DNA from: a virus
Lineage: Duplodnaviria > Caudoviricetes
Virus record (IMG/VR): IMGVR_UViG_3300044267_002854
Location: 1-51,764 of that record
Length of the DNA stretch: 51,764 nt
Reading direction: 5' to 3' (one strand)
Shown: positions 17,995-37,860 of the stretch, in pieces
Layout: every line of letters begins with the position of its first letter
How positions within the stretch are numbered: position 1 is the stretch's first letter
The notes under the pieces: generated by a model
The model's database searches: none
What the model was told of the DNA's origin: nothing
Seen by the model: only the letters and a program-made list of their open reading frames with translations
Position numbers and translations under genes: made by a program

Positions 17995-18023
17995 TTTACT
18001 TTGTAAAGTAGTTTAGATAGGAT
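17995..18023 (+). promoter_or_regulatory. promoter TTTACT-N17-TAGGAT for the DNA-modification operon
   Basis: Recurrent motif. Confidence 0.7.
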
Positions 18024-18048
18024 ACTTTTAATAACTTAGGTATTTATT

Positions 18049-18879
18049 ATGCAAACAAATATGATACAAGCATTCTTTGATTACATCAACGAGAGGCATG
18101 CTATTTATATTAATAAGTCTTCGGGCGCAGAGTTCCCTTGGACTGAAGACGAGATACTACAGACCTATAGCTTTTGTAATGTATTTAGGGAACTAGACAC
18201 AGTCACCATATGGCTTCGTAAAAACTGGAGAGAGCCGTATGCCGACCACCCCAACCTTCCTTTCGCTATGGCGATGGCTCGTCAAATCAATTGGCCAGCA
18301 ACTTTAGAAGAGATCGGCTTCCCTGAGGAATGGAACCCAGAACATGCTAAAAATGTTATGAGGGCTAGAAAACTTAAAAAAGAGAAAGTGTACACTGGTG
18401 CGTACATGTTGACGGGAACGCTAGGTGGTTCAAAAATCGATCAAACCATCGATAAAATACTAACCCCTCTGTATGAAAACCAACCTGAAATCTACTCCCA
18501 CTCGTTAGAACAGAGTTGGAGAGAGTATTTAAAGTACAAGGGTTTTGCCAAGTTTATATCCTATGAAGTTATTACAGACCTAAGACACACTAAACACTTA
18601 GAAAACGCAAACGACATAATGACTTGGGCTAATCCAGGTCCAGGAGCAAAGAGAGGACTCAACCGTATAAGCGGTAAAGAACTCAATGAGCCTATGCACA
18701 TTAAACGGGCTATAGAGGAAATGAGAGAGCTGTTACAATATTCTTTAAAAGAGCTCGAACCTTTTGTACCTGCCCTAGAGATGAGAGACATAGAGCACTC
18801 ATTATGTGAGTTTGATAAATATGAACGAACCAGATTAAACCAAGGGAGACCACGTGCTAAATATCACAAACCTGTTTAA
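18049..18879 (+). CDS. 5-hmdU DNA kinase-like protein (aGPT-Pplase1/HMUDK helical family)
   Basis: ERHAIY...PWTEDEILQTYSFCNVFRELD, GPGAKRGL, RDIEHSLCEFDKY: HhH-glycosylase-like fold signature recalled for this family. Confidence 0.8.
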   Translation: MQTNMIQAFFDYINERHAIYINKSSGAEFPWTEDEILQTYSFCNVFRELDTVTIWLRKNWREPYADHPNLPFAMAMARQINWPATLEEIGFPEEWNPEHAKNVMRARKLKKEKVYTGAYMLTGTLGGSKIDQTIDKILTPLYENQPEIYSHSLEQSWREYLKYKGFAKFISYEVITDLRHTKHLENANDIMTWANPGPGAKRGLNRISGKELNEPMHIKRAIEEMRELLQYSLKELEPFVPALEMRDIEHSLCEFDKYERTRLNQGRPRAKYHKPV

Positions 18880-19183
18880 AACAGTAAAAGAAGACGAGCG
18901 ATATCTCGTTGAAGACAACACACACCTAAAGACCATGGTTGTGAGTAAAACAACCCTAAAGCCTGAGAAAGAAACCACAGGACATTTCCACGAAGGACAG
19001 GAAGAAGTTTATTTATTTGTTAAGGGTAGGGGTGTACTAGAAACACACACCGAACTCATACAGGTGGTTGAAGGAGACGTCGTAGTCATAGACGATGGAG
19101 ATTTTCATAAGGTTTCTAATACATCAGACACAGTAGACCTAGAGTTTATTTGTGTGTTTCCAGGAGAACGCTATGAACATTGA
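18854..19183 (+). CDS. cupin-domain protein
   Basis: GHFHEGQEEVYLFVKGRG...GDVVVIDDGDFHKV. Confidence 0.85.
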   Translation: MLNITNLFKTVKEDERYLVEDNTHLKTMVVSKTTLKPEKETTGHFHEGQEEVYLFVKGRGVLETHTELIQVVEGDVVVIDDGDFHKVSNTSDTVDLEFICVFPGERYEH

Positions 19184-19841
19184 GTGGAGTGAAAAGGTTA
19201 ATGGCTTTGTTAGACCAGACACACTAGACGAATACGTTTTTAAAGAAATAAAGCCGTCTTACAAGTGTTTAGAGATATCTCCAGGAGATGTTGTGCTAGA
19301 TGTAGGCGCTAACATTGGAGCATTCACTAAGTATGCCTTAGAGTTAGGTGCAGAAGTTCATGCGTATGAGCCTGAAGAAGAAAACTATTTAATTATGTTA
19401 GAAAACATTAACTCACTTGACGCCATAGCTTATGCTAACAAGAAAGTTTTAACAGAACGGTGTGCGGTGGTGGGTGATGACAGCAAGTCTATTTCCCTGT
19501 ATGTTAACTCTAAGAAAAACAAAGGGCTACACATGACTAGACCAGTTCGTGGTCGTGAAGGGGTAGAGGTAGAGGCAAAAAACTTTGATGAAATAATCAC
19601 ATCAAAGCAACCAAATAAAATAAAGATTGATGTAGAGGGAGGAGAGTACAGCTTTATGCCTACGGTCTTTCCTGATTGTGTAGAGAAATTAGCAATGGAA
19701 CTACACTTTCAATACAACAAAGAGTGGAGAGGCATGGCAGTAAAGATACATGAAGACATGTTGTCGCAAGGCTTTTCCGTAATAAGAGAACCTAAATTCA
19801 CAGGTGGTAATTGGACCACATTAGCGGGGTATTCAAGATGA
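19173..19841 (+). CDS. FkbM-family SAM-dependent methyltransferase
   Basis: VLDVGANIGAF, AYEP, KIDVEGGE. Confidence 0.88.
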   Translation: MNIEWSEKVNGFVRPDTLDEYVFKEIKPSYKCLEISPGDVVLDVGANIGAFTKYALELGAEVHAYEPEEENYLIMLENINSLDAIAYANKKVLTERCAVVGDDSKSISLYVNSKKNKGLHMTRPVRGREGVEVEAKNFDEIITSKQPNKIKIDVEGGEYSFMPTVFPDCVEKLAMELHFQYNKEWRGMAVKIHEDMLSQGFSVIREPKFTGGNWTTLAGYSR

Positions 19842-20596
19842 AAGTATACATTCCAACAAGAGGCAGATCAAAAGACCAAACAACCCTAAAGTTTTTTCCT
19901 GAAGGACTAAAGGATAAAACAATATTAGTCGTAGACCACGACGAGAGAGATCAGTACGATGCTTACCCAAATGTATGGGTAATGCCTGAAGACTTGCCAA
20001 GCGGTATTTCACCAAAGCGAAAATATATTTGTGAGAATAGCGACGATCCTAAGGTGGTCATGCTTGACGACGACATACGCTTTTACATAAGAAAAGCATT
20101 CAACGACTGGCACTTGCGTTATTTAGAACCACACGAGCTACCAGCCATGTTTGGCGTTCTTGATAAGTGGTTAAACGATTATGCGCATTGTGGTGTGAGC
20201 GCTAGGGAAGGAAACAATCGAGTAGAAGACCTTTCCGTAGAGAACACTAGGTATATGCGATTACTCGCCTATAACATGGACATGTTGGACGGGGTAGAAC
20301 TAGGAAGGACTCGGATTATGGAGGACTTTGATGTTAACCTGCAACTATTAAGGAAGGGTAAAAAATCTAAGGTCAGCTATTACTATGCGCAAGGACAAGG
20401 CACCTCTAACGCCGATGGCGGTTGTAGTGAGTGGCGAAACCTAGACGTACAGGCAGAAGGTGCGGAACTATTAGCTTCCCTACACCCTGACTTTGTAAGG
20501 GTGGTTGAAAAGAAAACTAAAGAGGCTTGGGGTGGAGGCACTCGCAAGGACGTAATTGTACAATGGAAGAAGGCATATGCAAGTAGTCAAAGTTAA
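19838..20596 (+). CDS. TET-associated-type (TAGT/GREB1-like) glycosyltransferase
   Basis: N-terminal YIPTRGR, MLDDD (DxD), EDFDVNLQLLRKG, GGCS. Confidence 0.72.
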   Translation: MKVYIPTRGRSKDQTTLKFFPEGLKDKTILVVDHDERDQYDAYPNVWVMPEDLPSGISPKRKYICENSDDPKVVMLDDDIRFYIRKAFNDWHLRYLEPHELPAMFGVLDKWLNDYAHCGVSAREGNNRVEDLSVENTRYMRLLAYNMDMLDGVELGRTRIMEDFDVNLQLLRKGKKSKVSYYYAQGQGTSNADGGCSEWRNLDVQAEGAELLASLHPDFVRVVEKKTKEAWGGGTRKDVIVQWKKAYASSQS

Positions 20597-21647
20597 GAAT
20601 GTAAATCAAGCCCTCCCGTTAGGGATGAGCCTACTATATGAAGACGGAGTTCTTCGTGAGAGTCGAGCAGGAGACGTTATAGAATATCCTGGAGTCGTGG
20701 CGACAGTTTATGAAAAACCCACAGAAAGAGTATTGTTTAGCCCAGAAAGAGACGCTAACCCTTTCTTTCATTTCATAGAAGGTTTATGGATGCTTGACGG
20801 CAGGAACGACGTGGAGAGTATTGCACATTATGTCAAGCGCATGGGTAAGTTTAGCGACGACAGCAAAACACTGCATGGAGCATACGGACATCGATGGCGT
20901 TCGTGGTTTGGCAGAGACCAACTGCTTGAAGTCATAAACCGACTCTCTCTTTTCGAAGAAGACAGACGTGTTGTCCTAACGATGTGGGATCCTGAGAATG
21001 ATTTTACTTGTATGGAAGAAGGTGCTAAAGATGTTCCTTGTAACACTCACGTTTATTTTAAAGTTAGGGACGGCAAACTACACATGACAGTCTGTTGTCG
21101 TAGCAATGATATGATTTGGGGTGCTTACGGTGCTAACGCAGTACACATGTCCATGTTGCAGGAATTTATAGCTAACGCTATCAAAAAACAGGTAGGAACG
21201 TACACACAAATCAGCGACAGTTATCATGCCTATCAAGACGTTTATGCAAACCTACTGGATAAAATTCCTCCCGTAGATGTCTGGAATTTTCATCATGTGT
21301 ACAGCGATCCGTACAAACTAGACACCATACAGGCATATCCTCAGCTACTGTTAACCGACCACGTCAGTTGGTTAGAGACTAATAATCAGTTTCTATCTAC
21401 AGTTTTCGACCACTCGATGGAGCCCGAAGCGATAAAAAAGTGGAACTACCACTCAAACCCAGCAAAAGAAGACCCGTTTTTTGTCAATGTCGCAGAACCT
21501 ATCGCTGTTGCTTGGGAACACTACAAACTGTACAAAGAACTAGGTATAAGGGAAGAGATACAGAAAGCCCTATATGCGCTCAGTCCGTGCTTAGCTGGTG
21601 ATTGGCGCAGAGCCTGCATAGAGTGGATAGAGAGGAGGGCTAATTAA
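20577..21647 (+). CDS. thymidylate synthase homolog, probable dUMP hydroxymethylase
   Basis: Catalytic DVPCN; RSNDMIWGAYGAN (Asn at the pyrimidine-specificity position, so dUMP); SYHAY; gene neighbourhood. Confidence 0.8.
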   Translation: MQVVKVKNVNQALPLGMSLLYEDGVLRESRAGDVIEYPGVVATVYEKPTERVLFSPERDANPFFHFIEGLWMLDGRNDVESIAHYVKRMGKFSDDSKTLHGAYGHRWRSWFGRDQLLEVINRLSLFEEDRRVVLTMWDPENDFTCMEEGAKDVPCNTHVYFKVRDGKLHMTVCCRSNDMIWGAYGANAVHMSMLQEFIANAIKKQVGTYTQISDSYHAYQDVYANLLDKIPPVDVWNFHHVYSDPYKLDTIQAYPQLLLTDHVSWLETNNQFLSTVFDHSMEPEAIKKWNYHSNPAKEDPFFVNVAEPIAVAWEHYKLYKELGIREEIQKALYALSPCLAGDWRRACIEWIERRAN

Positions 21648-21677
21648 ATTTTACCGAAAAATTTTGTAAGAAAGTAA

Positions 21678-22367
21678 ATGAGTAATCAAGACACAATAAA
21701 CCGATGGTCGCATAGCCGTTTAGGAACTTATGAAAGTTGCCCTAAAAAAGCATTTTTCAGATACATAGAACACGTACCTGAGGAACAACACCCTGCTGCA
21801 GAGCGTGGTATTAAGATACACAACCTAGCAGAACAATATATAAAGGGGGAACTAAGTGAGATGCCTAGAGAACTATATCTCTTCTACGAGGGTTTTGAAC
21901 AGCTAAGAGAAGCATACGAGGAGGGTGACGTCTCTGTAGAGGAACAGTGGGCTTTTAACTTGAGTTGGGAAAAAGCAGATTGGGACGGTGAGGACACTTG
22001 GGGTAGATACGTTATTGATGCTTTTGTTAAACAGGGCGATAACGCTAGAGTTATTGACTTTAAAACAGGTAGGTTCAAAGATAAAAATGAAGGATATAAG
22101 AACCAGTGTTCTTTATATGCCTGTTGTGTGTTTAACCGCTTCCCTGAAATACAGAATATAGAAACAGAGTTGTGGTATCTAGACCACCATAAAATAACTC
22201 GTTATCGCTTTAGTAGAGAAGACTTGAGCGATATACAAGAAAATTTTCACAACAGGGCACTAACCATGACCACAGACACAGAGTTTAAAACAGCACCATC
22301 TGAGTTTGCTTGTCGTTGGTGTTCTTTTACTAATATTTGTAAGGATAATTTTTATGCGAGATCTTAA
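21678..22367 (+). CDS. PD-(D/E)XK nuclease (Cas4/RecB-like exonuclease)
   Basis: SHSRLGTYESCPKK, IDA..VIDFKTG, C-terminal CRWC...C. Confidence 0.85.
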   Translation: MSNQDTINRWSHSRLGTYESCPKKAFFRYIEHVPEEQHPAAERGIKIHNLAEQYIKGELSEMPRELYLFYEGFEQLREAYEEGDVSVEEQWAFNLSWEKADWDGEDTWGRYVIDAFVKQGDNARVIDFKTGRFKDKNEGYKNQCSLYACCVFNRFPEIQNIETELWYLDHHKITRYRFSREDLSDIQENFHNRALTMTTDTEFKTAPSEFACRWCSFTNICKDNFYARS

Positions 22368-22854
22368 TTCTTTATATAAGGTCATGGACAGCGGAGACGT
22401 TAAGCGTTATCACACAGTCGCAACACTAGGGGAGCAAACTAACGCTACTCACTGTTGGGGTGTGGCGGTTATTGCACTGTATCTATACCCAGAGATCGAT
22501 AAAGGTCTTTTATTGAACACACTACTGCATGACGTTGGTGAAATAGACACAGGAGATATACCTGCTACTGTTAAGTGGGCTAATCCAGAATTAAAACACA
22601 GACTAGATGCTATCGAAGACAAGTTGATGCAGGAACTGGGAATAGACTACAAAATAACAACTAAAGAGAAAAAGATACTGAAACAAGCAGACATGTTTGA
22701 ACTACTCTTCTTTTGTTTAAAGCAAAGAAAACTAGGTAATAGACATGTTGGTCGTATTTTCGGCAACGGGGTTGAAAAGTTGTCCGATGGAAATTTAAAC
22801 GGTCGGGGTGAAAAACTACTGGCTAATTTAGTAACACTATATGGAGAGATATAA
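22354..22854 (+). CDS. HD-domain 5'-deoxynucleotidase (YfbR-like)
   Basis: RYH..QTNATH, LLHDVGEIDTGDIP, KQADMFE. Confidence 0.82.
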   Translation: MRDLNSLYKVMDSGDVKRYHTVATLGEQTNATHCWGVAVIALYLYPEIDKGLLLNTLLHDVGEIDTGDIPATVKWANPELKHRLDAIEDKLMQELGIDYKITTKEKKILKQADMFELLFFCLKQRKLGNRHVGRIFGNGVEKLSDGNLNGRGEKLLANLVTLYGEI

Positions 22855-23198
22855 TGGAACCAGAAAACCTTAGAAAATTAACAGAAAACGATATTGAATG
22901 CCTAGCTAAAGCTGAAGAGTCATACGGTGACTCTTGGAAAAAGCGTGGTGGCGTAGGTGCATTCATGATGTTAGCTCGTAAGTGGGACAGGCTTGAGAAT
23001 AAAGCAGATGAGTACGGTTGGGACGTTTTTGAGGCAATACAGGACGACGATAGACCCGAAGGTATATTAGACGACATCCGAGACCTCCGTAGGTATCTAC
23101 TACTGGTCGAAGAAGAGATGCAGAGGGAGACAGAGATGCGTAAACCACTTCCTCAAGAGATAACTGAGGGCATAACCCTACCTAAGTTTGAGGCGTAG
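22854..23198 (+). CDS. nucleotide-modification-associated protein (DUF1599/Nmad1-like)
   Basis: SYGDSW..RG...RKWDRL...DDIRDLRRYLLL. Confidence 0.65.
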   Translation: MEPENLRKLTENDIECLAKAEESYGDSWKKRGGVGAFMMLARKWDRLENKADEYGWDVFEAIQDDDRPEGILDDIRDLRRYLLLVEEEMQRETEMRKPLPQEITEGITLPKFEA

Positions 23199-23199
23199 A

Positions 23200-25080
23200 G
23201 TGTTACAGACACCAATGTTTCAGAGCGATTCTGACTGGGCACCGCCTTCTATTCTTCCAGATATATCACAGGAAAAAGAGATAGCCATTGACCTTGAGAC
23301 AAGAGACCCGAACCTAATTAAAAAAGGTCCAGGCTGGGCAACAGACGACGGTGAGGTGGTGGGCATAGCCGTAGCCACTAAAAACTGGTCGGGCTATCTA
23401 CCCATCAAACACGAAGGTGGGGGAAACCTAGATAAGAAGTTTGTTTTGTCTTGGTTGAGTAGGGTATTGAGCACAGAAAGTGATAAGATATTTCATAATT
23501 CTTTGTACGATGTTGGTTGGCTACGAAGAACAGGGGTAAAACTAAACGGTAAGATACAAGACACCATGATTGCTGCACCTTTGATAAATGAAAACAGAAA
23601 TCGTTACTCTCTAGATTCTCTTGGAGCCGAGTATTGTGGCGAAAGGAAAGACGAAACACTGCTCAAGAAAGCAGCACAGGATTGGGGGATAAACCCTAAA
23701 GCTGAGATGTGGAAATTACCAGCTAAGTACGTTGGTAGTTATGCAGAACAAGACGCAGTCTTAACACTAAAGTTGTGGCAAGAAATGAAAAAAGAGATAG
23801 AGAAACAAGGACTTAGCCAAATTTACTCACTAGAGAGCGGACTTTTACCGTTGTTAATAGAAATGCGTTGGCGAGGTATCTTGATTGATCAAGACAAAGC
23901 GGGACAAACATCAGAACAACTAAAGGTTAAAGAAAAAGAGGTTCTCAAGGAAGTTAAAAGGCTCTGTGGACTCGACATAGAAGTTTGGGCTTCAGCATCG
24001 GTCGCTAAAGGGTTCGATAAACTAGGAATCAGTTATCCTAGGACAGCTAGGACTAATGCCCCTAGTTTTACTTCGCAATGGCTAGAAACTCATGACCACG
24101 AGCTACCTAAAGCGATTGTAAGGGCTCGGAAGTTAAATAAGGTGCGTACTACCTTTATCGATAAAATGGTATTCGAGCACTTACATAAGGGGCGTCTACA
24201 CGCACAGATAAACCCTTTACGGTCTGATAACGGCGGTACGGTCACAGGACGGTTCAGCTATAGCACACCAAACCTACAACAAGTACCCGCTAGAGATCCT
24301 GAGCTCGGTGAGTTAGTTAGGGAACTCTTCATACCTGATGGCGATGCTTATTGGGGCGCATTTGACTACAGTCAACAAGAACCTAGACTAACGGTTCACT
24401 ATTCTTCTCTGACCAAACAAGCAGGGGCAGAAGAAGCAGTTAAAGCATACCAAGACGATAATGCAGATTTTCATCAAATAGTGGCGGATATGGCAGGCAT
24501 TGATCGAAAGAAGGCTAAGATGATTAACTTAGGGCTTAGCTATGGAATGGGAAGACAGAAACTAACCATGTCGCTAGGTATATCGGAAGCAGAAGCAGAA
24601 CAGTTGTTCGCTAAATATCATCAACGAGTGCCTTTTATAAGAGGGTTGACTAACGCCTGTATGCGTAAAGCATCAAACAAGGGCTTTATAACCACTCTCT
24701 TAGGTAGGAAGTGTCGTTTTAACCTATACGAGCCTCAAGGGGAAAGAGGCATCCCTCTGCCCTATGACCAAGCAGTAGCTAAGTGGGGTGAACAGGGGTT
24801 AGGTAGAGCCTTTACCTATAAAGCACTAAACAGACTAATACAGGGTTCGGCAGCAGATATGACTAAACGGGCGATGTTAGATTTGTGGAACGAGGGGTAT
24901 GTTCCTTATGTACAAGTACATGACGAACTAGACCTCGCAGTATCAAATAAGAAAGAAGCAGAGAATATAAAAGAAATCATGGAACAGTGCGTCAAGCTGC
25001 AAGTACCAAATATTGTAGATGCAGAAATCGGGAAAAGTTGGGGGAAAGCAACACAATCATACGAGGAGATATTTAAGTGA
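23200..25080 (+). CDS. polA: family A DNA polymerase with 3'-5' exonuclease
   Basis: IDLET, FHNSLYD, TGRFS, DYSQQEPR, KMINLGLSYG, QVHDEL. The start may be 23188 or 23200. Confidence 0.95.
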   Translation: MLQTPMFQSDSDWAPPSILPDISQEKEIAIDLETRDPNLIKKGPGWATDDGEVVGIAVATKNWSGYLPIKHEGGGNLDKKFVLSWLSRVLSTESDKIFHNSLYDVGWLRRTGVKLNGKIQDTMIAAPLINENRNRYSLDSLGAEYCGERKDETLLKKAAQDWGINPKAEMWKLPAKYVGSYAEQDAVLTLKLWQEMKKEIEKQGLSQIYSLESGLLPLLIEMRWRGILIDQDKAGQTSEQLKVKEKEVLKEVKRLCGLDIEVWASASVAKGFDKLGISYPRTARTNAPSFTSQWLETHDHELPKAIVRARKLNKVRTTFIDKMVFEHLHKGRLHAQINPLRSDNGGTVTGRFSYSTPNLQQVPARDPELGELVRELFIPDGDAYWGAFDYSQQEPRLTVHYSSLTKQAGAEEAVKAYQDDNADFHQIVADMAGIDRKKAKMINLGLSYGMGRQKLTMSLGISEAEAEQLFAKYHQRVPFIRGLTNACMRKASNKGFITTLLGRKCRFNLYEPQGERGIPLPYDQAVAKWGEQGLGRAFTYKALNRLIQGSAADMTKRAMLDLWNEGYVPYVQVHDELDLAVSNKKEAENIKEIMEQCVKLQVPNIVDAEIGKSWGKATQSYEEIFK

Positions 25081-25397
25081 AAGGAATAGATGAGTCAAGT
25101 GCTTCGTTTCATAGAGACAGAAACTCAAAAATCTACTATGAGTACACGAACACAAAACAAACACTGGAACAACTTGCTGATAAGTACGGAGTCACGAAAC
25201 AGAGAGTTTGGCAGATTGTCAGGCGCTGTGAGATGGGTTCTGGAGACTATTACAAAGGTTTTGAAAACTATAGAGATAAACAAGATTCCCTAAAAGAACT
25301 AGGGATCCCTGAGGAGCAGATGCATAAACTTCTTCGTAAGTGGATGAGCGAAAAGTTTGATATCAAGACTATAGCTCTCAAGAATGAAGGAGAATAA
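25077..25397 (+). CDS. HTH DNA-binding protein (sigma region-4-like)
   Basis: TLEQLADKYGVTKQRVWQIV. Confidence 0.75.
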   Translation: MKGIDESSASFHRDRNSKIYYEYTNTKQTLEQLADKYGVTKQRVWQIVRRCEMGSGDYYKGFENYRDKQDSLKELGIPEEQMHKLLRKWMSEKFDIKTIALKNEGE

Positions 25398-25770
25398 TCT
25401 CTGGCAAAGCCTTAAAAGAAATCTTTCAAAGCCACTTTGGCAACGTATAGAAACAGGAGGCACAGGAAGAGGTATCCCAGATGTTTTTGGCGCATATGAC
25501 GGGGCTTGTTGCTGGGTAGAGCTAAAAGTAGCTAAAGGAAACAAAGTTCTTTTAAGACCTGAACAGGTTGCTTGGCTTATAAAATTCGGTCAAACTGGGC
25601 TTCCTACCTATATACTAGTAGGTACTGATAAAAGAAAAATGTATCTTTTTTCAGGACTAGAGGCAATAATTGTAAAAGACGAAGGTTTAAAAGCAGAACC
25701 ATTGTTGTTGTTAACTGCTCCTTACGATTGGGAAAAACTTCAAGAGGTGTTATTTTCTCAGAAGAAATAG
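25384..25770 (+). CDS. VRR-NUC/Holliday junction resolvase-like nuclease
   Basis: GIPDV...WVELKV...RPEQVAW. Confidence 0.8.
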   Translation: MKENNLWQSLKRNLSKPLWQRIETGGTGRGIPDVFGAYDGACCWVELKVAKGNKVLLRPEQVAWLIKFGQTGLPTYILVGTDKRKMYLFSGLEAIIVKDEGLKAEPLLLLTAPYDWEKLQEVLFSQKK

Positions 25771-25973
25771 ACATTGAAGAAATAATGACGCTGTACTCAA
25801 TGTATAGAGAAGACTCGGACATGATGTTGCAAATTGTTCTTTTCGCACTAAACCGATACCCCAGTGAAATAGAAAAAGGACTAGGGATTACAGAACAGTA
25901 TAGAGAGCGATTAGAGCACGTAGCTGTTAAAATGCTTGCCCCCGAAATTCCTGAGTCGAAAAACCTAAACTAA
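25728..25973 (+). CDS. hypothetical protein
   Basis: ORF ending just before the next promoter; start uncertain. Confidence 0.5.
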   Translation: MGKTSRGVIFSEEIDIEEIMTLYSMYREDSDMMLQIVLFALNRYPSEIEKGLGITEQYRERLEHVAVKMLAPEIPESKNLN

Positions 25974-29973: not shown

Positions 29974-30138
29974 TTGAACAAAATAACTAAAATCGAGAAA
30001 GGGAACAGACCCAGACGGGTTAAACTAATGTCTGATGAGCTCTTTGCCATTGGCGAAAAACTACACGACTTCGGTGAAGGCGAACTGCGTTTTTTACAAA
30101 TCCTGATAGACGGTATTATTAACGGTCGGAGGAAATAA
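29974..30138 (+). CDS. small hypothetical protein (54 aa)
   Basis: Promoter at 29907, GAGGTG RBS, TTG start. Confidence 0.5.
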   Translation: MNKITKIEKGNRPRRVKLMSDELFAIGEKLHDFGEGELRFLQILIDGIINGRRK

Positions 30139-30143
30139 GCAGC

Positions 30144-30338
30144 ATGGAAAAGCCAAAAAAGAGATGCTGTATATGCAGTAGTGAAATCAAGCCTGATGCA
30201 CACGGTTGGGCTGGAGGGTACAACGCCTACCCTGTAGGGAAAGGGTCAGCGTGTCACGAATGTAATCACTGGCTCGTTGTTCCTGCCAGACTGGCACAAC
30301 TTAGAATGGACGATATAGATCGTGAAGATAAGGCTTGA
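30144..30338 (+). CDS. small Zn-finger-like protein
   Basis: CCIC...NAYPV...CHECN...VVPAR. Confidence 0.7.
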   Translation: MEKPKKRCCICSSEIKPDAHGWAGGYNAYPVGKGSACHECNHWLVVPARLAQLRMDDIDREDKA

Positions 30339-30615
30339 GGACAAGTGTTTAGAGTGTAATGCCCCGATTACTTGGGGCAAACCACTCGACACAGGCAATG
30401 GGAATGTTGGTGAAACTTTTCAGATAGACAGCATGGATATAGTGCGTCGAGCATATGAAGGTGGTCAAACATACTCCCTCAAAGAAAACAGCAACGTGTT
30501 CAGTACGGTGTGTAGTGCGTGTTGGTCAGACACCGAGTATGAAAATCCCGATAAGTATCAATCGGTTACGTCAGACAATGCCGACTATTTCGTGCAAGGA
30601 GAAGACGATGGGTAG
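30322..30615 (+). CDS. hypothetical protein (CxxC pairs)
   Basis: CLEC...CSAC. Confidence 0.55.
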   Translation: MKIRLEDKCLECNAPITWGKPLDTGNGNVGETFQIDSMDIVRRAYEGGQTYSLKENSNVFSTVCSACWSDTEYENPDKYQSVTSDNADYFVQGEDDG

Positions 30616-30700
30616 GTCAAAACGATCTAAATATTCCCCTTTACTTTCCACTTTACTTTATTTATGCTATATAGGTAATTAAATAATAAAGGTGAAAATT

Positions 30701-30955
30701 ATGAGCACATTTTTACAAGACGCACAGGACGAAAGCCTGACCATGAATTACAACGGGAAGGATATCCCTCTTGCTTATTGGAACTTAGTTATGACAAAGC
30801 GAGATTTATCCCTCTGGTGTAAACTTGGTATGAAGCCAAATAGACATTGGAAAGTAACAGACGTCAAAAAATACTTTGATATAAAAGGTACAAGGGAAAC
30901 CCTGTACGACAACTTTATAAAAAAGTATGGCGTACTTTTAGGGGAGCAGTCATGA
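30701..30955 (+). CDS. hypothetical protein
   Basis: Promoter at 30640; AAGGTG RBS. Confidence 0.7.
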   Translation: MSTFLQDAQDESLTMNYNGKDIPLAYWNLVMTKRDLSLWCKLGMKPNRHWKVTDVKKYFDIKGTRETLYDNFIKKYGVLLGEQS

Positions 30956-31236
30956 CTGAATCTATAACAACACGGTTATTAAATAAATCACAACTCACCG
31001 AACAAGAGAAAAACCGCTTGGTTGGTGAAATCTGTGCAGAGTATGAACGCCTGAGGTATAACGGCAGTGAAAAACAAGTGATGCGTATATACCACAGCGA
31101 CAGGACAGGTGCCGAAGACAACTACATCCGAGAAAAAACTGGAAAGTATTTTAGGTGTGGTTCTGGGTTTGCTTCAAACCTTCAAATAGGGTACTTAGCT
31201 ACACTCGGTGAAGTATTACGGGAGAACGCAGAATGA
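30952..31236 (+). CDS. hypothetical protein
   Basis: ATGA overlap. Confidence 0.65.
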   Translation: MTESITTRLLNKSQLTEQEKNRLVGEICAEYERLRYNGSEKQVMRIYHSDRTGAEDNYIREKTGKYFRCGSGFASNLQIGYLATLGEVLRENAE

Positions 31237-31661
31237 GTACTAGAGCAGTTTACCGTTTTGTTAAGGAAGACGGAATAAATGTCTACACAGATATCTATAA
31301 ACACCACGATGGCTATCCTTCGGGAGCTGTGCTTTGGATTCAGAACGCGATCGATTATGAGAAAAAGCAACGGGAAAACCTTTTTGAAGACCACTCGGGC
31401 GACTCCTACCCTGACCGTAGACTTCATTATGCAGACCGACTAGCTATTTCCTTCTTACTGGGGAATACTGGCTTTCGCCAATTTACTGAACCTGAAATAA
31501 ACTCAGACGCTGCATTCATTTATACTATACGTGTCTCGTACCAAGACATCCAGAACATTAATATAGTCTGGTGCGACTTTGAGAATGAGAACCAGTGGGA
31601 TGGTACTTTTGAGGAAATGTGCGAAGTATACAAAAACGTACGTGGGGAGAAGACAGCATGA
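31233..31661 (+). CDS. conserved hypothetical protein
   Basis: MSTRA...IYKHHDGYPSG motif common in phage early genes. Confidence 0.7.
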   Translation: MSTRAVYRFVKEDGINVYTDIYKHHDGYPSGAVLWIQNAIDYEKKQRENLFEDHSGDSYPDRRLHYADRLAISFLLGNTGFRQFTEPEINSDAAFIYTIRVSYQDIQNINIVWCDFENENQWDGTFEEMCEVYKNVRGEKTA

Positions 31662-31918
31662 AGATACTGGGTGTAATTATATTTTTAGCAGGAATGTTTG
31701 TGTTTAGTAGTGGCTTAGTGTTCTTGGACTTAGCGTCCCTGCCTTTGAAAAAAGACCTATACACCATAGATGTGCTGGGGCTTTTTAACAATATGTTTTC
31801 ATTAGACCCCTCAACAGCAAGTTTTCAGTCTATACTGTCTGCGTTGTTTATATTGATGGGTTGCTTTATCTGCTTTGCAGGAACTATATTAATGAGGAAT
31901 GACGATGGATCTATTTAA
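31658..31918 (+). CDS. two-TM membrane protein
   Basis: Two hydrophobic segments. Confidence 0.65.
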   Translation: MKILGVIIFLAGMFVFSSGLVFLDLASLPLKKDLYTIDVLGLFNNMFSLDPSTASFQSILSALFILMGCFICFAGTILMRNDDGSI

Positions 31919-32510
31919 AGGAAGAGCCAAAAACTACCCAGTGCGGATTAGAGAATGGGATGAACGCACCGACAGAGATTGGGAGGACACGGAAGTGATA
32001 GGTAGACCTACCCGAGCTTTCGGTACTTCTGTGTTTGAGTACGCAGGAAAAACCTATGAACCTCACCCCTGGGAAGAAAACGAAGACTTGGAAGATTTAA
32101 AAAAGTATTTAGAGGATTGGTTGACCGTAGAATACGACCGACCCGTAAAGTTCACTTTTTGTTTATGTGGGCTTTATGAATACTCTTGGGATGAGATACC
32201 TCATCATTCGGATACCGTACCAACTTACAACGACCTAGTGGTTGGTGTTTCTTACGGTTCACCTAGAATTTTAGAGTGGCTGACCTACCGAGGCGATATT
32301 AAAGCAGAAACCAATACCAGCAAGACTCACTTTATTAAGTACGATGAAGAGATCGCCGACTACTGGGAACCAACTAAAACCAGCTATTTATTGGAAGATG
32401 GTGACGTCTACGTGTTCGACGGACATAGCCAAATGTGCTCGACTCATGCGATTCCTCCTCTCGTAGGTACGGGGTCTAGATACAGCCTAACCTTTAGAAC
32501 AGGCATCTAG
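31899..32510 (+). CDS. AlkB-like 2OG-Fe(II) oxygenase
   Basis: HSD...VSYG...THAIP...RYSLTFR. Confidence 0.82.
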   Translation: MTMDLFKGRAKNYPVRIREWDERTDRDWEDTEVIGRPTRAFGTSVFEYAGKTYEPHPWEENEDLEDLKKYLEDWLTVEYDRPVKFTFCLCGLYEYSWDEIPHHSDTVPTYNDLVVGVSYGSPRILEWLTYRGDIKAETNTSKTHFIKYDEEIADYWEPTKTSYLLEDGDVYVFDGHSQMCSTHAIPPLVGTGSRYSLTFRTGI

Positions 32511-32589
32511 TTAATCTTTTACAACTCCTTTACTTTGTAAGCCCTGCGGGTTATGCTATAAGGGTAATAAATAATAAAAGGTGAAAACT

Positions 32590-33000
32590 ATGGAAACTGT
32601 AAGAGCAATGGTCATAGACCCTAAGAATAAAGAAACTAAAGTAATTGAACTTTCAGCAAAACCAGACTACAAGGAGTGGAAAAAACTTATGGGGATCGAC
32701 AGCCCTGTAGATTTAGTACGTCTTGAACGGTTCGCAGGTCCAGACCAAGAAATAGTGACGGGCTTAATTGTTGACGACGAAGGACTACTTAAAGAAAAGA
32801 ATTACTATTTTTTGCCCGAAGACTATCACTCACCCCTCGCTGGAACTGCGTTATTAATATCGTGGGATGACGAGTGTGAGAACGGTACGCTCGTAGACCT
32901 AGTGCTTCCGTCAGGCGGTATTCGCTGGGCTAAGGATGATTTTAAAATGTCTCCCGAGTTTGTCTTTGTAGACACTACTGATCAGGAGAAGTTAAACTAA
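32590..33000 (+). CDS. DUF3846-like hypothetical protein
   Basis: IVDDEGLLK...LAGTALL; promoter at 32529. Confidence 0.6.
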   Translation: METVRAMVIDPKNKETKVIELSAKPDYKEWKKLMGIDSPVDLVRLERFAGPDQEIVTGLIVDDEGLLKEKNYYFLPEDYHSPLAGTALLISWDDECENGTLVDLVLPSGGIRWAKDDFKMSPEFVFVDTTDQEKLN

Positions 33001-33082
33001 CCAGCATCGTACTGATGTAGTTTAGGATCAGGCTTTTGGGTTTTATACTATATGGGTAATAAATAATAAAAAGGTGAATTAA

Positions 33083-33358
33083 ATGAACGAAGAAAAACCT
33101 GGATTTGTACAAGTACTGGAAGACCGAGGCTATGAATTCCTTAGCCGTAGGTATGGTGTAGGAGGCTGGTTCTTTAAAAATAACAACCTCTACAAGTATT
33201 TAGCAACTCAACGCTGGGCGCATACTGCCGAAGGCAACTTACGGGATGGTAGAGTTAGGTCGTGGGCTAGGCTTACGAAGATTACTCACTATAACTACCT
33301 GAGCCATTACATCCCTCCGTATATTTATAAAGAAGTAATCGGGAGGAGTTTAAGATGA
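33083..33358 (+). CDS. hypothetical protein
   Basis: Promoter variant TTTAGG-N17-TATACT at 33021. Confidence 0.65.
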   Translation: MNEEKPGFVQVLEDRGYEFLSRRYGVGGWFFKNNNLYKYLATQRWAHTAEGNLRDGRVRSWARLTKITHYNYLSHYIPPYIYKEVIGRSLR

Positions 33359-33609
33359 AACAAAAATTTAAAAAACTTCCCGAGATAGGCGACACTGTTG
33401 TCTGCTCTGACTGTAGTGGTAAAGGTTGGTACGCCATGTCTCCAGCTACTGGTGACGAAAACTACAACGACCATTACCAAACCGATCATAACTGTCACAA
33501 CTGTAACCGTACTGGAGAGATGGTTGTTGTGGGTTTTAGTAAGTACGGAATCGAAACAGCACCTCCTGAGTCCGATTGGGTGTACGGTGAGGATGGAGAT
33601 TACAGCTAA
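33355..33609 (+). CDS. DnaJ-type CxxCxGxG Zn-finger protein
   Basis: CSDCSGKG...CHNCNRTG. Confidence 0.7.
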   Translation: MKQKFKKLPEIGDTVVCSDCSGKGWYAMSPATGDENYNDHYQTDHNCHNCNRTGEMVVVGFSKYGIETAPPESDWVYGEDGDYS

Positions 33610-33626
33610 TGAACGGAGAAATAAAG

Positions 33627-34046
33627 ATGAAACAAAAATTTAAAGATGGTTGGGAAATAATACCTGCTGATTCTAAGGCTGGGTTATTCATGGAAGAAGA
33701 CTGGGAGGAAAGACTCTCGCCCATAATAGATAAAGAACAGCAAATTATTTACAATATGCTTAAATTATTTATCCCTGAAGAATACGGCTATTACTTTGAT
33801 GAAATCCACGAGCACGACGAACCTGAAGACATACCTCATGGTGAAGGGGTGTGGCGAACGGTCTATAGTACTCCTCTCGGATTTTATTATAAGGCTGGTG
33901 AATACAACATAATAAATACTGCTTCAACCGAAGAATATATTTACTACGCCATTGGTCTACATGGTTGCAGCCTTCAATCTGCCCTTACTGAATATGTTAG
34001 GGTGCCTAAAGAACAATACTGGGCTAGGAGTTACACCAACGCATGA
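33627..34046 (+). CDS. acidic hypothetical protein
   Basis: GGAG RBS favours a start at 33627. Confidence 0.65.
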   Translation: MKQKFKDGWEIIPADSKAGLFMEEDWEERLSPIIDKEQQIIYNMLKLFIPEEYGYYFDEIHEHDEPEDIPHGEGVWRTVYSTPLGFYYKAGEYNIINTASTEEYIYYAIGLHGCSLQSALTEYVRVPKEQYWARSYTNA

Positions 34047-34330
34047 ACGAACAAGAATATCATAAAAAATACCCCTTTCAAGAGGCTACTAGCGAAGACT
34101 ACGATAAGGAACTAACAACTCAAATAACCTTTAGGTTTCCTGAAGTGTTAAGGAAGCGCATGATGGGCGAGTATCTGGAGTTTTACTACGACGAAGAAAG
34201 TACCTATGTTGAAACTATAGGGGAATGGTCTAATGCGGGTATGTACGTTCTCCGTGGTAAACGGTATTCAGATATGGAACTATATGATTCTGCCGTGGCG
34301 TATTTTGAGCTTCAAATTGATCAAGTTTAG
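34043..34330 (+). CDS. acidic hypothetical protein
   Basis: ATGA overlap. Confidence 0.65.
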   Translation: MNEQEYHKKYPFQEATSEDYDKELTTQITFRFPEVLRKRMMGEYLEFYYDEESTYVETIGEWSNAGMYVLRGKRYSDMELYDSAVAYFELQIDQV

Positions 34331-34386
34331 TATCAAGCCGTTGGGTTTTATAATATAGGGGTAATAAATAATAAAGGGGAACACTT

Positions 34387-35046
34387 ATGAATAAAGAACT
34401 TATAGATACTCGGTTAGTAGCTAAACTCATGAATCAAACCGCTAAAGAATGTGGTATGGTTCGGGTTTATAGTTGTACTGATACTCTTTGGTGGGGTAAG
34501 GTATACGAACTAGAAAAACGGGGCGCTATATATCCTGCGTATAACTATAGAAGGTTGGCTAAATGCTATAATTTTCTAGACGATCGTTTTATAGACGAAC
34601 TCACTAAAAAGGCTAAAGCCGAAGGTTTTGATTTGGCTGATTCCTCACTTAACGCTTATAAACGGAAATCAAAGGTGCGTAATCACTCCTGCCCTAAGTA
34701 TAAAAAGAAACTTAAACACTATTTTGATAACTGGAAGCAGGATAGTAGAATGCCTGTAGCCCGTATTATACCCAATACTGAAAATGCGGTTTACGTTAGG
34801 CTGATCGCCCACTTTAAGAATAAGGTATATTCGGTTAAATCAATAAACCCTGCTTCAAAAATAACTACGGGGATTTGTTATCTGGATATGCCCCGCTTGG
34901 CTGAAATGGTTAATTACTATATAGAAAGTGAACACTGGGAAGAGGTCACCGAAGATTGTACTTTTGAATTAACCCGTATACAAACAGGAAAAAAGGTTAT
35001 ATATACCTACGAAGAACTGCTTAAGTTTTTCGCTGATTCTAAGTAA
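34387..35046 (+). CDS. hypothetical protein
   Basis: 219 aa; promoter TTTAGT-N17-TATAAT at 34326. Confidence 0.75.
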   Translation: MNKELIDTRLVAKLMNQTAKECGMVRVYSCTDTLWWGKVYELEKRGAIYPAYNYRRLAKCYNFLDDRFIDELTKKAKAEGFDLADSSLNAYKRKSKVRNHSCPKYKKKLKHYFDNWKQDSRMPVARIIPNTENAVYVRLIAHFKNKVYSVKSINPASKITTGICYLDMPRLAEMVNYYIESEHWEEVTEDCTFELTRIQTGKKVIYTYEELLKFFADSK

Positions 35047-35233
35047 ACCTGTTCACGCCCCTTTACTTTTCTTGTAAAAGGGCGTTGTTGTTTTTTAACA
35101 ACTGATTCTGCACTGTTCATTGGCTGGGGCAATACCCTAAGGAGGATGGAAGCCCCTGTTGTTAGTGGGCTATTTGCGTATTAGTGTTGGAGAGTGGGAG
35201 AAATGTTTTTAAAAGTTAAATCAAATCGTGTTT

Positions 35234-35336
35234 TAGCCAATAGGGCAATAGTGTTTGAAGTAAGTATTTGAATAATAAGAAGAAATGTTATATTGGCTAG
35301 AGCTATTGGCTGAATATTGCCTAGATTAGCCAATAT
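35234..35336. repeat. second cluster of AGCCAATA/TATTGGCT repeats
   Basis: Six copies or variants at 35234, 35244, 35291, 35302, 35315 and 35327. Confidence 0.7.
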
Positions 35337-35383
35337 AATTGGGTATATTTTGGGTATGTTTTACAAGACGACATGTAAACAGT

Positions 35384-35715
35384 CTCATGGTTCTGGAACC
35401 TCTGTATCCACTGTTGTATACTATAGTTGTTCTGTCTCTTGGAGCTTGGGTCTCCTCTAAGATTCTTCGGCTCCCCGTCCCAAGAGCCAAGAATCTCTTA
35501 CAAGATCGATAAACAAGAAGAAAAAGAGACAGAAACAGAGATCTTCTTCTTGTTCTTCTTGGTTCAAGGACAAGAACCAAGAGCGATAATCGATAATCAT
35601 GAAGAACAAGAACATGAACCATTGCTCTTCTTCTTGTTCTTGCTCCTTGTTCTTCTTCTTGCTCACAAGGGCACGGGCACGGGCTTTTCTTCCTGTTTAT
35701 GTTCTTTATCTTCTT
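35384..35715. repeat. period-3 low-complexity tracts (GAA/CAA/CAT versus TTC/TTG/CTC)
   Basis: For example gaagaacaagaacatgaacc and ttcttcttgttcttgctcc. Confidence 0.8.
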
Positions 35716-35727
35716 TTAGAAAAGGGC

Positions 35728-35756
35728 TTTACTTTCTAGTAGTAAAGGGGTATCAT
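35728..35756 (+). promoter_or_regulatory. promoter TTTACT-N17-TATCAT with CTTTACT/AGTAAAG inverted repeat
   Basis: Recurrent motif. Confidence 0.7.
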
Positions 35757-35806
35757 ATCTTTACTAACTAATAACGGTTAGCAATTAACTTAAAAAGGTG
35801 AACTAC

Positions 35807-36097
35807 ATGCCACAATTAAGTAAAGCTGAAAAAACCGCAGTTAAGAAGGTCAAGGCTCAAGCTTCTGCTAAAGTAGAAGTTAAGGGTATGGGTGGTTTTC
35901 CTGTTACCGCTACTATTAAAGCTACAGGGAAACAACCAAGAGCTGGGCACAACCAAGATTGGGTTGATGCTTTTGATGGTCTCACCATTGGGGATTTCAT
36001 CGCTATTAAAAATAGTGATAAAATGCTCGGTGGATTTCAACGAGATACATCGGCTCTACGTTACTTCGTCAAGCACGGCTTCGTAACTATAGGGTAA
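35807..36097 (+). CDS. small basic putative DNA-binding protein (paralog of 37248)
   Basis: AAGGTG RBS; FPVTATI...FDGLTIGDFI...LRYFVKHGFVTIG. Confidence 0.75.
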   Translation: MPQLSKAEKTAVKKVKAQASAKVEVKGMGGFPVTATIKATGKQPRAGHNQDWVDAFDGLTIGDFIAIKNSDKMLGGFQRDTSALRYFVKHGFVTIG

Positions 36098-36107
36098 TCC
36101 CAAGAAG

Positions 36108-36138
36108 TCCCTCTTACTTAGGTAAGGGGGATTTTCTC
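36108..36138 (+). terminator. intrinsic terminator
   Basis: TCCCTCTTAC/GTAAGGGGGA stem followed by TTTT. Confidence 0.65.
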
Positions 36139-36141
36139 TAA

Positions 36142-36225
36142 CCGATAATCCCCAAGAACAAGAACACGAACCAAGATTCTTCTTCTTGTTGTTCAGTATA
36201 AGCACAACAAGAAGAACATGAACTC
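36142..36225. repeat. second period-3 GAA/CAA versus TTC/TTG tract
   Basis: cgataat..caagaacaagaacacgaacc..ttcttcttcttgttgttc, similar to 35584-35645. Confidence 0.75.
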
Positions 36226-36233
36226 ACGCTGGG

Positions 36234-36624
36234 TATAATCCACTAGGTCTTCCCTTTACTTTTTACTACTATATAGGGGTATTAATAAACTATAAGGTGA
36301 AATTATGAACTATGTAATAAATGATAAGGTCAAATTAAAGCCTATATCTAAAGGCGCTTCAAGCACTTGGTGGTATGACGAGGAAACTAATGAACTGTAT
36401 AAGTGGTTTCCACCAGCTTACCATGCAGGAACGGGGTATATTAACCGCCCCAGCTCTATTAGAAAGGTCACTGAGTTTAATATTGATAGTATGAATATCC
36501 CTAACTACGTTTTTAAACGAATGAAGACTAAATACTTAGGTTGGTCTTTATAATCCACTAGGTCTTCCCCCTAGTTTTTACTACTATAGTAGGGTAATAA
36601 ATTACTATAAGGTGAAATTATGAA
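36234..36624 (+). repeat. duplicated approx. 75-bp promoter/RBS leader (36234-36309 and 36549-36624)
   Basis: tataatccactaggtcttccc...tttttactactata...actataaggtgaaattatgaa occurs twice. Confidence 0.85.
36305..36553 (+). CDS. hypothetical protein
   Basis: Starts at the end of the duplicated leader. Confidence 0.7.
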   Translation: MNYVINDKVKLKPISKGASSTWWYDEETNELYKWFPPAYHAGTGYINRPSSIRKVTEFNIDSMNIPNYVFKRMKTKYLGWSL

Positions 36625-36952
36625 ATATGTTAATATGTACCGCACCAGCAGGTGCTACGGTGGACCCGAAGAGGGAGGCTGGTGGTATACTCAGGGAGAG
36701 TTCATAAAGTGCTACGGCATGTACTCTTCCAACGGGGATGCTAATTTAAAGGTAAAAAGGCTACAAGAGTCCCTTACTTACGAACCCACCTATCACTCTG
36801 GGTACGGTGATCACGACGGTGTTGACCCTTCAGGTAACGGCGATGATGCCTACCTCATCCCAGGTGGCGCTTGGGGGAAGGACGAAATATCCTTCTTAGT
36901 TGAAGACCATATAGGCGCTAACTTCCCTCGCTACACACCTCGCTACGAGTAA
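36620..36952 (+). CDS. conserved hypothetical protein (YGGPEEGGWWY motif)
   Basis: Starts at the end of the duplicated leader. Confidence 0.75.
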   Translation: MKYVNMYRTSRCYGGPEEGGWWYTQGEFIKCYGMYSSNGDANLKVKRLQESLTYEPTYHSGYGDHDGVDPSGNGDDAYLIPGGAWGKDEISFLVEDHIGANFPRYTPRYE

Positions 36953-36961
36953 TCCCCCGTG

Positions 36962-36997
36962 GCTCATGGTTCTGGTTTACCTTACAGAACCATGAGC
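36962..36997. terminator. perfect 13-bp hairpin
   Basis: GCTCATGGTTCTG-N10-CAGAACCATGAGC; no U tract. Confidence 0.55.
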
Positions 36998-37007
36998 TCT
37001 AAACCTC

Positions 37008-37097
37008 GATAAAGATAAAGATAAACAAAACCAAACCCGAACTCATACTCTTGTTCATGCTCATGTTCTTGTTCATGCTCGCATTCGTGTGTATGTG
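37008..37097. repeat. third period-3/6 tract (GATAAA x3; YTCWTG-type hexamers)
   Basis: gataaagataaagataaac...ctcttgttcatgctcatgttcttgttcatgctc. Confidence 0.8.
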
Positions 37098-37105
37098 GCT
37101 ACCCC

Positions 37106-37194
37106 TTTACTTATAACTAGTAGTTATATAGTTTTACCTTATAACTAAATATTATATTTAAACCCCTTTACTTACCCGTTAAAAAGCGTACTAT
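37106..37194 (+). promoter_or_regulatory. tandem promoters TTTACT-N17-TAGTTT (37106) and TTTACT-N16-TACTAT (37167)
   Basis: Recurrent motif. Confidence 0.6.
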
Positions 37195-37247
37195 TATAGG
37201 TACTATTAAATAATTAAGTTTAATAGCGTAAATAAAGGTAAATAAAA

Positions 37248-37580
37248 ATGGTAAATAAAACTAAAGGTACTAACGCTAACCTTACCGCTAATAGCGTAAC
37301 TATAAACGGTACTAGCTACCCCTTAACCGCTACTATAACCGTAGTTAACGGCGGTACGGTAAACCCTAAAAACGCTTATATATTAAATAGCGTTTATAAC
37401 GGGGCTACCGTAGCTAATATAGTACGGGCTAAAGCTAACCCTAGCGCTAAAGTTAATAACGCTTTAAGTACTAAAGCGTTAGCTAAAGCTAATATTAGTT
37501 TAGGTAGTAGCGCTAGTACCGTTTTAAGTAAAACGGGGTTAGGGTATTTTTTAAAGGGCGGTAAAATAACTATAAGCTAA
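37248..37580 (+). CDS. small basic protein lacking D, E, H, Q, C, W and internal M (paralog of 35807)
   Basis: Has its own promoters, an AAGGT RBS and a terminator; YPLTATI...YNGATVANIV...LGYFLKGGKITIS. Confidence 0.8.
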   Translation: MVNKTKGTNANLTANSVTINGTSYPLTATITVVNGGTVNPKNAYILNSVYNGATVANIVRAKANPSAKVNNALSTKALAKANISLGSSASTVLSKTGLGYFLKGGKITIS

Positions 37581-37597
37581 CCTTTAAACCCTAGCGG

Positions 37598-37634
37598 TAA
37601 GCCCCCTAGCTAATAACTAGGGGGCTTATTTTTT
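37598..37634 (+). terminator. intrinsic terminator
   Basis: TAAGCCCCCTAG-N7-CTAGGGGGCTTA followed by T6. Confidence 0.85.
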
Positions 37635-37860
37635 ATAGGGGCGTAGGGTAGTAAAGGGGTATAAAAGTAAAGGGCTTAAAAGGGCTATAATTAAGCCGTA
37701 GGGGTAGCCCCGCCCCCCTTTATAGCATAACCCTGTAGCTATAGCTAAAGGGTAAGATTTGGAGAGGCATTCACCATGGATTTCGAATTTTTGCAAATTT
37801 CCTTTACTTCTTGTGCAAAATAAGCAAAAATATTTCTTGCAAAATTTTTAGGAGAAAATT

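Follow-up and report, generated by a model that had tools for sequence, protein, structure and literature searches.

The window analysed here, the whole 51.8-kb stretch (51,764 nucleotides, 41% GC) of IMG/VR virus record IMGVR_UViG_3300044267_002854, is a podovirus contig of the HTVC023P group that carries a predicted operon for thymine modification and, ahead of its terminase genes, a block of DNA almost empty of the dinucleotides TC and TG. This block is one transcription unit, from promoter to terminator, cleared of both words. TC and TG and their complements GA and CA were counted together and are called TS words below. The window has a background of 23.7 TS sites per 100 nt, and only one site was found in the 630 bases from 37097 to 37726, the ATG start codon at 37248, as compared with 146.2 ± 8.9 expected and a minimum of 108 in 10,000 base shuffles. 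The cassette extends on the plus strand to 37756, with three sites up to that point. The two longest TS-free gaps of the window (477 and 153 nt) are separated only by this ATG, the next longest having 47 nt, and the block has a segment depletion score of 162, whereas 200 chunk shuffles do not go beyond 16.7. The original prediction, made from the sequence alone, had pointed to a cassette free of the TC/TG context, and in this it was right.

That the block arose by restriction-site avoidance or from base composition, or is a repeat or an artefact of assembly, is hardly credible. The block is AT-rich (37% GC), and a poly-T run alone gives phage SPO1 a score of 25, a match rejected as a block for that reason; but the shuffles keep at least 108 sites, all other dinucleotides occur in the block, with CG, GC, GG, CC and TA enriched, and none of 11 relatives without the operon has a block. 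Moreover, contigs from four of four public runs not flagged as source show no difference to parts of the block, and since these separate runs match it exactly it is not an assembly artefact.

Upstream of the gene in the block lie two putative TTTACT -35-like elements (at 37106 and 37167; 37106-37195, plus strand). The gene itself (37248-37580, plus strand), hereafter the blank gene, encodes 110 amino acids and has the ribosome site AAGGT, without GA. It is followed by a TS-free hairpin of 14 pairs with a T tail, resembling an intrinsic terminator (37596-37630, plus strand), and by a C-rich motif, CCCCnCCCCCCTTTAT (37708-37723, plus strand), which lies inside the block. The segment starts 108-213 nt upstream of the start codon in ten of ten cassettes examined, and ends 45-57 nt past the stop codon, just beyond the hairpin, in G025, G027, G003 and G032. 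As the edges follow the transcription unit, a need to transcribe this unit unmarked is favored.

Selection has been acting against TS in the block, and of this we are practically certain. The blocks of L005, L004 and L008, which are 81, 79 and 64% identical to that of the window, carry 113, 125 and 190 substitutions and yet only 1, 1 and 2 TS, where the same substitutions placed at random would give 61, 64 and 94. None of the eight variant sites checked in read data creates a TS. Indeed, the blank open reading frame (ORF) is at the theoretical minimum for its protein (1 seen, 1 forced, 60 expected), and seen against forced counts are 5/5 in G006, 7/5 in G025 and 19/14 in G032. One lineage has the start codon ATA in four of six loci and ATG in two, and two other loci apparently have ATT; these apparent ATA/ATT starts (L036, L039, L040, L042, L061, L343) remove the last TG. 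Avoidance of TS at z < -4 is confined to 2 of the 70 ORFs of the window, so that the idea of a whole genome patterned by modification is not supported. Two early-region genes (34043-35046, plus strand) show partial synonymous avoidance (z -3.2 and -5.1). As for transcription, one of four RNA runs yielded two pieces of 151 nt on the blank gene, with a depth of 2, too weak to count.

The blank protein has an isoelectric point of 10.4 and contains no D, E, H, Q, C or W and no internal M. It is a member of a family of small basic phage proteins with the pattern HNAERH..GKTV..DIKYD..GFI, whose D, E and H residues are swapped out in the blank copies, Q, C and W being gone as well. A paralog in the window (35807-36097, plus strand) is an internal control, as it has 21 TS per 100 nt, which is ordinary, and keeps D, E, H, Q and W; among family genes TS density ranges from 0.3 to 26 per 100 nt. 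The predicted model of the blank protein retains the strand and helix order of the paralog (two models, pLDDT 76 and 86). Fold comparison of the models gave best Z values of 3.7-3.9, with several winged-helix domains among tied rows, so the protein may be called loosely winged-helix-like (Z under 4); that it binds DNA is likely, although a guess. Searches of Pfam, PHROG (best E 0.03) and PDB sequences gave no match to the blank protein, fold comparison gave no clear one, and none of eight cultured modified-DNA phages searched has a match to the small protein. A weak homolog is gp18 of phiJL001 (15.2 bits; 0 of 200 shuffles as high), also the third viral fold match (E 0.12), whose gene adjoins aGPT-Pplase1. 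All TAGT genomes that include the early region have the family, and it is missing from every operon-less and GT-B genome screened.

The modification operon, on the plus strand, has the order aGPT-Pplase1, cupin, FkbM, TAGT glycosyltransferase and thymidylate-synthase homolog, then exonuclease, HD hydrolase and PolA. The T-modifying operon of the original prediction was confirmed as a modification cluster. Its first gene (PF18723, 18049-18879) is a homolog of M6 gp55 and not of the P-loop kinase gp54, and the name of the family was rejected as proof of a kinase. The cupin and FkbM methyltransferase genes (18854-19841) are likely to act in sugar tailoring. The TAGT glycosyltransferase (19838-20596; PF20691, 78.1 bits against a cut-off of 27.5) is the likely writer; its DDD motif is retained in five of five homologs compared, and its gene context suggests that it transfers a sugar to 5-hydroxymethyluracil (5-hmU) in DNA. 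The thymidylate-synthase homolog (20577-21647), of the dUMP hydroxymethylase type, is 44% identical to M6 gp58 and shares the RSND..GAYGAN motif with M6 and phiJL001. Further downstream, 21678-25080 holds the exonuclease, the HD deoxynucleotidase, a small ORF and DNA polymerase A.

No homolog of M6 gp51-54 was found in the window, that is, no kinase, AADT, pyridoxal-phosphate (PLP) or radical-SAM enzyme. The kinase gp54 has no tblastn match in the window, which may be short of some kb, or in the near-complete TAGT relatives, and the only Walker A match of the window is UvrD; gp51 (AADT, aGPT-Pplase2) has no match in the window, and PF18724 was absent among 30 proteins scanned. M6 gp55 was dispensable in a lysate experiment (PMC8989533). 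Since a dUMP hydroxymethylase-type enzyme is present without gp51-54 homologs, and gp55 is dispensable, the likely route is 5-hmU from the nucleotide pool followed by direct glycosylation.

TG/TC is the deduced target context of thymine hypermodification in M6, ViI and phiW-14 (PMC6449724), and TG is foremost in SH-Ab 15599 (PMC13458397); the accessible text of bioRxiv 2023.12.21.572611 gives no target context for TAGT. The modification context TC/TG of the original prediction thus agrees with the published one. Very probably TS is avoided in the block for the reason that it carries the phage's own mark. GA and CA are TC and TG on the opposite strand, and FkbM and other methyltransferases are present, so the excluded word could instead reflect a modified adenine with C or G before it, as the mirror image of TS. 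This is very improbable, as the operon is centred on a dUMP-hydroxymethylase-like enzyme, TS is the known context for such phages, and G003, G006, G025 and G029 have blocks without an FkbM match.

The original prediction had proposed comparing relatives for blocks and operon, and this comparison bore it out. We took the best TS-depletion score per genome, with a null maximum of 16.7, and counted a score over 20 as a TS-poor segment. Nine of 13 TAGT relatives with the region present score over 20 (G000 162, G001 134, G029 88, G025 87, G006 84, G003 63, G027 42, G008 23, G005 22) and four under (G030 14, G032 14, G026 12, G031 10), versus none of 11 operon-less relatives (7.6-11.8). The 13 exclude G007, a near copy of G003, G004 and G028, in which the region is off contig, and G017, with a block of 160 and the operon off contig; two of the 11 operon-less genomes read over 50 of about 60 kb, and three fragments (maximum 14.0) were left uncounted. 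G032, under 20, still avoids TS at synonymous sites (z -8.5). G002 has a capsid protein 97% identical and yet lacks the operon, the block and the small-protein family. When contigs were picked by the small gene alone, TAGT was found in four of five, the fifth being a 19-kb fragment. The genomes with the operon fall into a single clade of the TerL tree, within which block strength differs between sisters (G026/G027, G029/G008); the block is labile. In the close relative G009 (L278:6558-7895) a GT-B glycosyltransferase and a dUTPase stand in place of TAGT, and there is neither block nor small-protein family.

The excluded word changes among enzyme sets, as the original prediction had wished to see compared: it is TC+TG with TAGT, TC in distant GT-B phages and TG in one kinase/AADT set. 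A search of 34 further long contigs, of which 26 were taken (20 kb before TerL for 21, five whole), gave two distant GT-B phages with dUMP hydroxymethylase in which only TC/GA is avoided: G037 (L548:12896-13370) has 0 TC/GA in 475 nt against 55 expected, with 76 TG/CA, and G042 (L560:1770-2467) has 8 TC/GA in 698 nt against 84. Both units are of the promoter-gene-terminator type, their proteins having 0 and 1 D+E. G064 (L549:18090-18917), a 44-kb phage with terminal repeats and a Pfam-confirmed kinase+AADT set, has 8 TG/CA in 828 nt against 104 expected, with 108 TC/GA; its protein of 160 amino acids is acidic (26 D+E) and lacks C, Q, W and internal M. No single-word score exceeds 12 in any of the 11 operon-less genomes. 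Seventeen of the 26 have the thymidylate synthase and aGPT-Pplase1 with no TAGT or GT-B match; a methyltransferase was confirmed in two of them, and three more have the same N-terminus. In G037, about seven similar ORFs of 128-245 amino acids, with starts MSALDK, MPALDK or MASLPPP, were seen between cassette and terminase (L548:13484-18328). Softer TS-poor units with another cargo protein occur in methyltransferase-type operons (L542:16806-17554 of G054, also G062, G051 and G052), and TAGT was rejected as sole partner of TS blocks.

The family protein might itself read marked DNA, coating or silencing it, in which case its own gene would be blank to escape its own product. The distribution of the family, in all TAGT genomes with the early region and in none of the operon-less or GT-B genomes screened, the position of phiJL001 gp18 beside aGPT-Pplase1 and the high isoelectric point would all suit such a reader of the mark. 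We nevertheless hold this to be quite improbable, a shade more so than the binding site discussed below: paralogs in the same genomes are not blank, and the TC-only, TG-only and methyltransferase-type cargo proteins have no match to the family profile of the window.

We propose that the block is kept free of TS as an unmodified transcription unit for host polymerase on incoming virion DNA, which we consider probable, if less firmly than that TS marks are what is avoided. The thymidylate-synthase homolog would replace T by 5-hmU, and the TAGT enzyme would glycosylate 5-hmU at TS after replication, giving a base-J-like product with no kinase step. This mark would hinder host RNA polymerase, which would need to read the blank gene on fully modified virion DNA. 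The small basic product, made first, would likely bind DNA or polymerase so that the marked remainder is expressed or protected. In a more general form, a bootstrap gene would have evolved repeatedly in thymine-hypermodifying phages, written in a reduced alphabet that the phage's own enzyme cannot touch, with a product that, as the first protein, unlocks transcription of the marked genome or shields it; our opinion on this is evenly balanced. Bacterial RNA polymerase is blocked by bulky groups in the major groove, probably at initiation (PMC4838386), and tolerates 5-hmU (PMC11550810); what modified T does to promoters is named in PMC6449724 as a subject for further study.

Several points weigh against this proposal. 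The operon does not force the block, because 4 of 13 TAGT relatives score under 20 (G026, G030, G031, G032), and two more purge the promoter only. The operon-bearing genomes being one clade, the Fisher test (p 0.0006) overstates independence, and there are about two contrasts. No block was found in the four close GT-B relatives (G009, G034-G036), in six cultured kinase-route phages (M6, PaMx11, TM26, phiW-14, Ag3, SP10), in five TAGT phages of other families or in two of three kinase/AADT contigs (G066, G067). Scores over 20 occur in 4 of the 17 relatives without a TAGT match (methyltransferase type), TC-only is seen in two genomes and TG-only in one, and an operon-less control gene in 023Pt_psg01 avoids TS at z -5.3. 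Further early genes, which also have to be read, show an ordinary TS content. Moreover, we infer the sugar, the writer and the writer's context. Finally, inhibition at initiation (PMC4838386) explains the promoters and not the purged coding part. For the coding purge an elongation block or an escape from nucleases is needed. An elongation block is known for base J, which is tied to transcription termination.

Nuclease escape is the core of the reading in which the block enters the cell first and bears no mark, so that a host nuclease or sensor of hypermodified DNA would pass it over, and in which its product inhibits this defence; the logic is that of first-step transfer in T5 and of gene 0.3 in T7. 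It accounts for the purged coding part too. In the window and relatives the block adjoins a conserved motif that precedes the terminase genes, and terminase-like ORFs likewise follow the TC-only and TG-only cassettes (in G037 by search; in G042 and G064 by an unconfirmed ORF reading). It is unlikely all the same, though the strongest of the alternatives: TS-saturated tracts abut the cassette and in G008, G025 and G026 lie between cassette and motif, the edges track promoter and terminator, the orientation of the unit, towards the motif or away from it, varies with the lineage, and the contigs show no molecule ends. The status of "first gene" likewise is an inference from position alone, and the control of entry or packaging that the original prediction had allowed for is unsupported, since the cassette faces either way.

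The C-rich motif has been conserved before the late genes, in relatives that carry the operon as well as in those that lack it, and is a candidate packaging or terminal (pac/end) site. Behind it, in the window (37708-37790) and relatives, come a hairpin-like stretch, a TTTT-GAGAC-like word and a putative TTTACT promoter, an arrangement kept throughout the family. No pile-up of contig ends marking a genome end was seen in the contigs of the public runs, and the packaging mode is not named in the accessible parts of PMC9599517 or bioRxiv 2019.12.14.876532. If unmarked DNA served a site-binding machine, such as terminase at pac or origin proteins, the gene would have been purged as part of the site; indeed the block runs through the motif in G000, G001, G017 and G006, and a 105-nt block in L065 is centred on it. 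This is improbable, as in G025, G027, G003, G032, G005 and G008 the segment follows the gene or promoter and ends before it reaches the motif, and the motif with adjoining TS is also found in block-less genomes.

The predicted promoters had been described in the original prediction as having a -35 that avoids TS. The core TTTACT-17-TAnnnT occurs at 13 sites of the window against 1.6 by chance, with TTGACT once and TTGACA never; the series runs on the plus strand from 17995 to 37195 (17995, 25982, 27792, 28100, 28681, 29907, 30640, 32529, 35728, 37106 and others), and its cores hold about half the expected TS (45 against 84). Pooled TTTACT to TTGAC[AT] counts, which include chance matches and related genomes, are 73:26 in the 13 TAGT genomes, 18:23 in the 11 operon-less, 47:5 in methyltransferase-type and 22:1 in close GT-B genomes, and TTTACT:TTGAC sites number 5:0 in M6 and 3:0 in phiJL001 (62-64% GC modified-DNA phages). 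Such sites fit a -35 that avoids TG/GA, and on the promoters the original prediction is supported in part. A TTTACT unique to TAGT was rejected, as it also occurs in G009 (4), G002 (2), M6, phiJL001 and Ag3; PaMx11 and phiW-14 have no TTTACT or TTGAC promoter-like site. Positions of such sites are 354, 31903, 37357 and 40132 in M6 (L085) and 11781 and 25016 in phiJL001 (L326).

The tracts said to be saturated with TS, as dense marks flanking the cassette, were not confirmed as out of the ordinary. The GAAGAAC/GTTCTTC-type repeat tract at 35400-35700, with a shorter one at 36950-37096, is modestly TS-rich: among 150-nt windows, the fraction of T in TS context ranks in the 92-97th percentile for 35380-35700 and in the 73-85th for 36940-37110, the raw TS count reaches the 99.9th percentile only at 35480-35670, and no tract is in the top five of the window. 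Similar repeats occur in G002 and HTVC027P, which lack the operon, and in G036, which lacks a block, and laid-out marks specific to the operon were rejected. We read these tracts as the repeat-rich spacer of the phage family. In several TAGT genomes the densest tract lies beside the family gene (z 7.0 in G008, 5.7 in G026, 5.2 in G006, 5.1 in G003; operon-less maxima 3.3-5.0), and there they may have been co-opted. Repeat tracts with nearly every T before C or G were also seen near the C-rich motif region in G008 (L072:8577-8862) and G036 (L530:16477-16637). A second excluded context was rejected, because the block poor in A/T words in G008 and that of 160 nt in G036 are such repeats.

The operon is already known, and a blank gene matched to the writer appears to be new. 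HTVC023P-type pelagiphages of clades V, VIII and IX belong to the same phage group as the window and have the same cluster of thymidylate synthase and aG/PT-PPlase1, with deoxynucleotidase and glucosyltransferase beside PolA (PMC9599517); the main text of that paper does not use "dinucleotide", "depleted" or "promoter" and does not describe the cassette. The 5-HMUDK/AADT pathway of M6, ViI, phiW-14 and PaMx11 (PMC8989533, PMC5889632, PMC6449724) has in common with the window the dUMP hydroxymethylase, aGPT-Pplase1 and the TS context, whereas the window has a glycosyltransferase and the cultured phages lack a blank block. Predicted glycosylated hydroxymethyluracil is shared with base J and the JGT-like GT-A glycosyltransferases (bioRxiv 2023.12.21.572611), but the window phage, with a putative activity and sugar, would draw its hmU from the nucleotide pool, and the dinucleotide would decide where the sugar is placed. 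phiJL001 shares aGPT-Pplase1, TAGT and thymidylate synthase in one cluster, the TTTACT promoters and gp18, and differs in having no depleted block (score 6.0). Ten cultured phages with modified DNA, or candidates for it, and a complete record from spring water show no block (the block-less set comprises M6, PaMx11, TM26, phiW-14, Ag3, SP10, phiJL001, LuckyBarnes, RSL1 and ctUhy936, the SPO1 match being the poly-T run). Modification-free cassettes were not found described in open PMC and bioRxiv full text, supplements not covered.

First-step-transfer DNA of T5, the early end of T7 and vertebrate CpG islands are sequences shaped to act before, or free of, a DNA-acting enzyme. The window differs in avoiding the dinucleotide of its own likely mark, in limits that coincide with one transcription unit and in a protein alphabet cut to fit. 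The finding bears on how host polymerase first reads hypermodified phage DNA, and a blank gene with an ordinary paralog in one genome offers natural matched controls. Blank words also predict the context of uncharacterised writers (TC+TG for TAGT, TC for the distant GT-B, TG for one kinase/AADT set); if the bootstrap proposal is true, a writer's specificity would be readable from sequence alone. Here DNA chemistry limits the amino-acid alphabet of a protein, six amino acids being given up, in an abundant marine phage group.

The window phage was seen in seawater runs, and its TerL is 55-62% identical to those of the closest cultured phages, 023Pt_psg01, HTVC027P, DSL-LC04 and HTVC023P; DSL-LC04, of the same group, is listed with a gammaproteobacterial host. 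HTVC023P-type core genes are present in their order (SNF2 helicase, primase, UvrD, PolA, TerL, GroES, capsid), and the late region starts with the small and large terminase subunits (38461-40444, plus strand). The source assembly is a single contig, the window itself, and as related genomes have 58-65 kb it may be short of some kb. Early-region genes include a pyrimidine-dimer-glycosylase-like gene (28151-28675), which adjoins aGPT-Pplase1 in many relatives, a cytidylyltransferase-like gene (29460-29888) and a 2OG-Fe(II) gene (31899-32510). Finally, an ORF of 561 amino acids contains 12/18-nt tandem repeats and a GGTGGTGATGATGAT-type repeat at 2749-3155.

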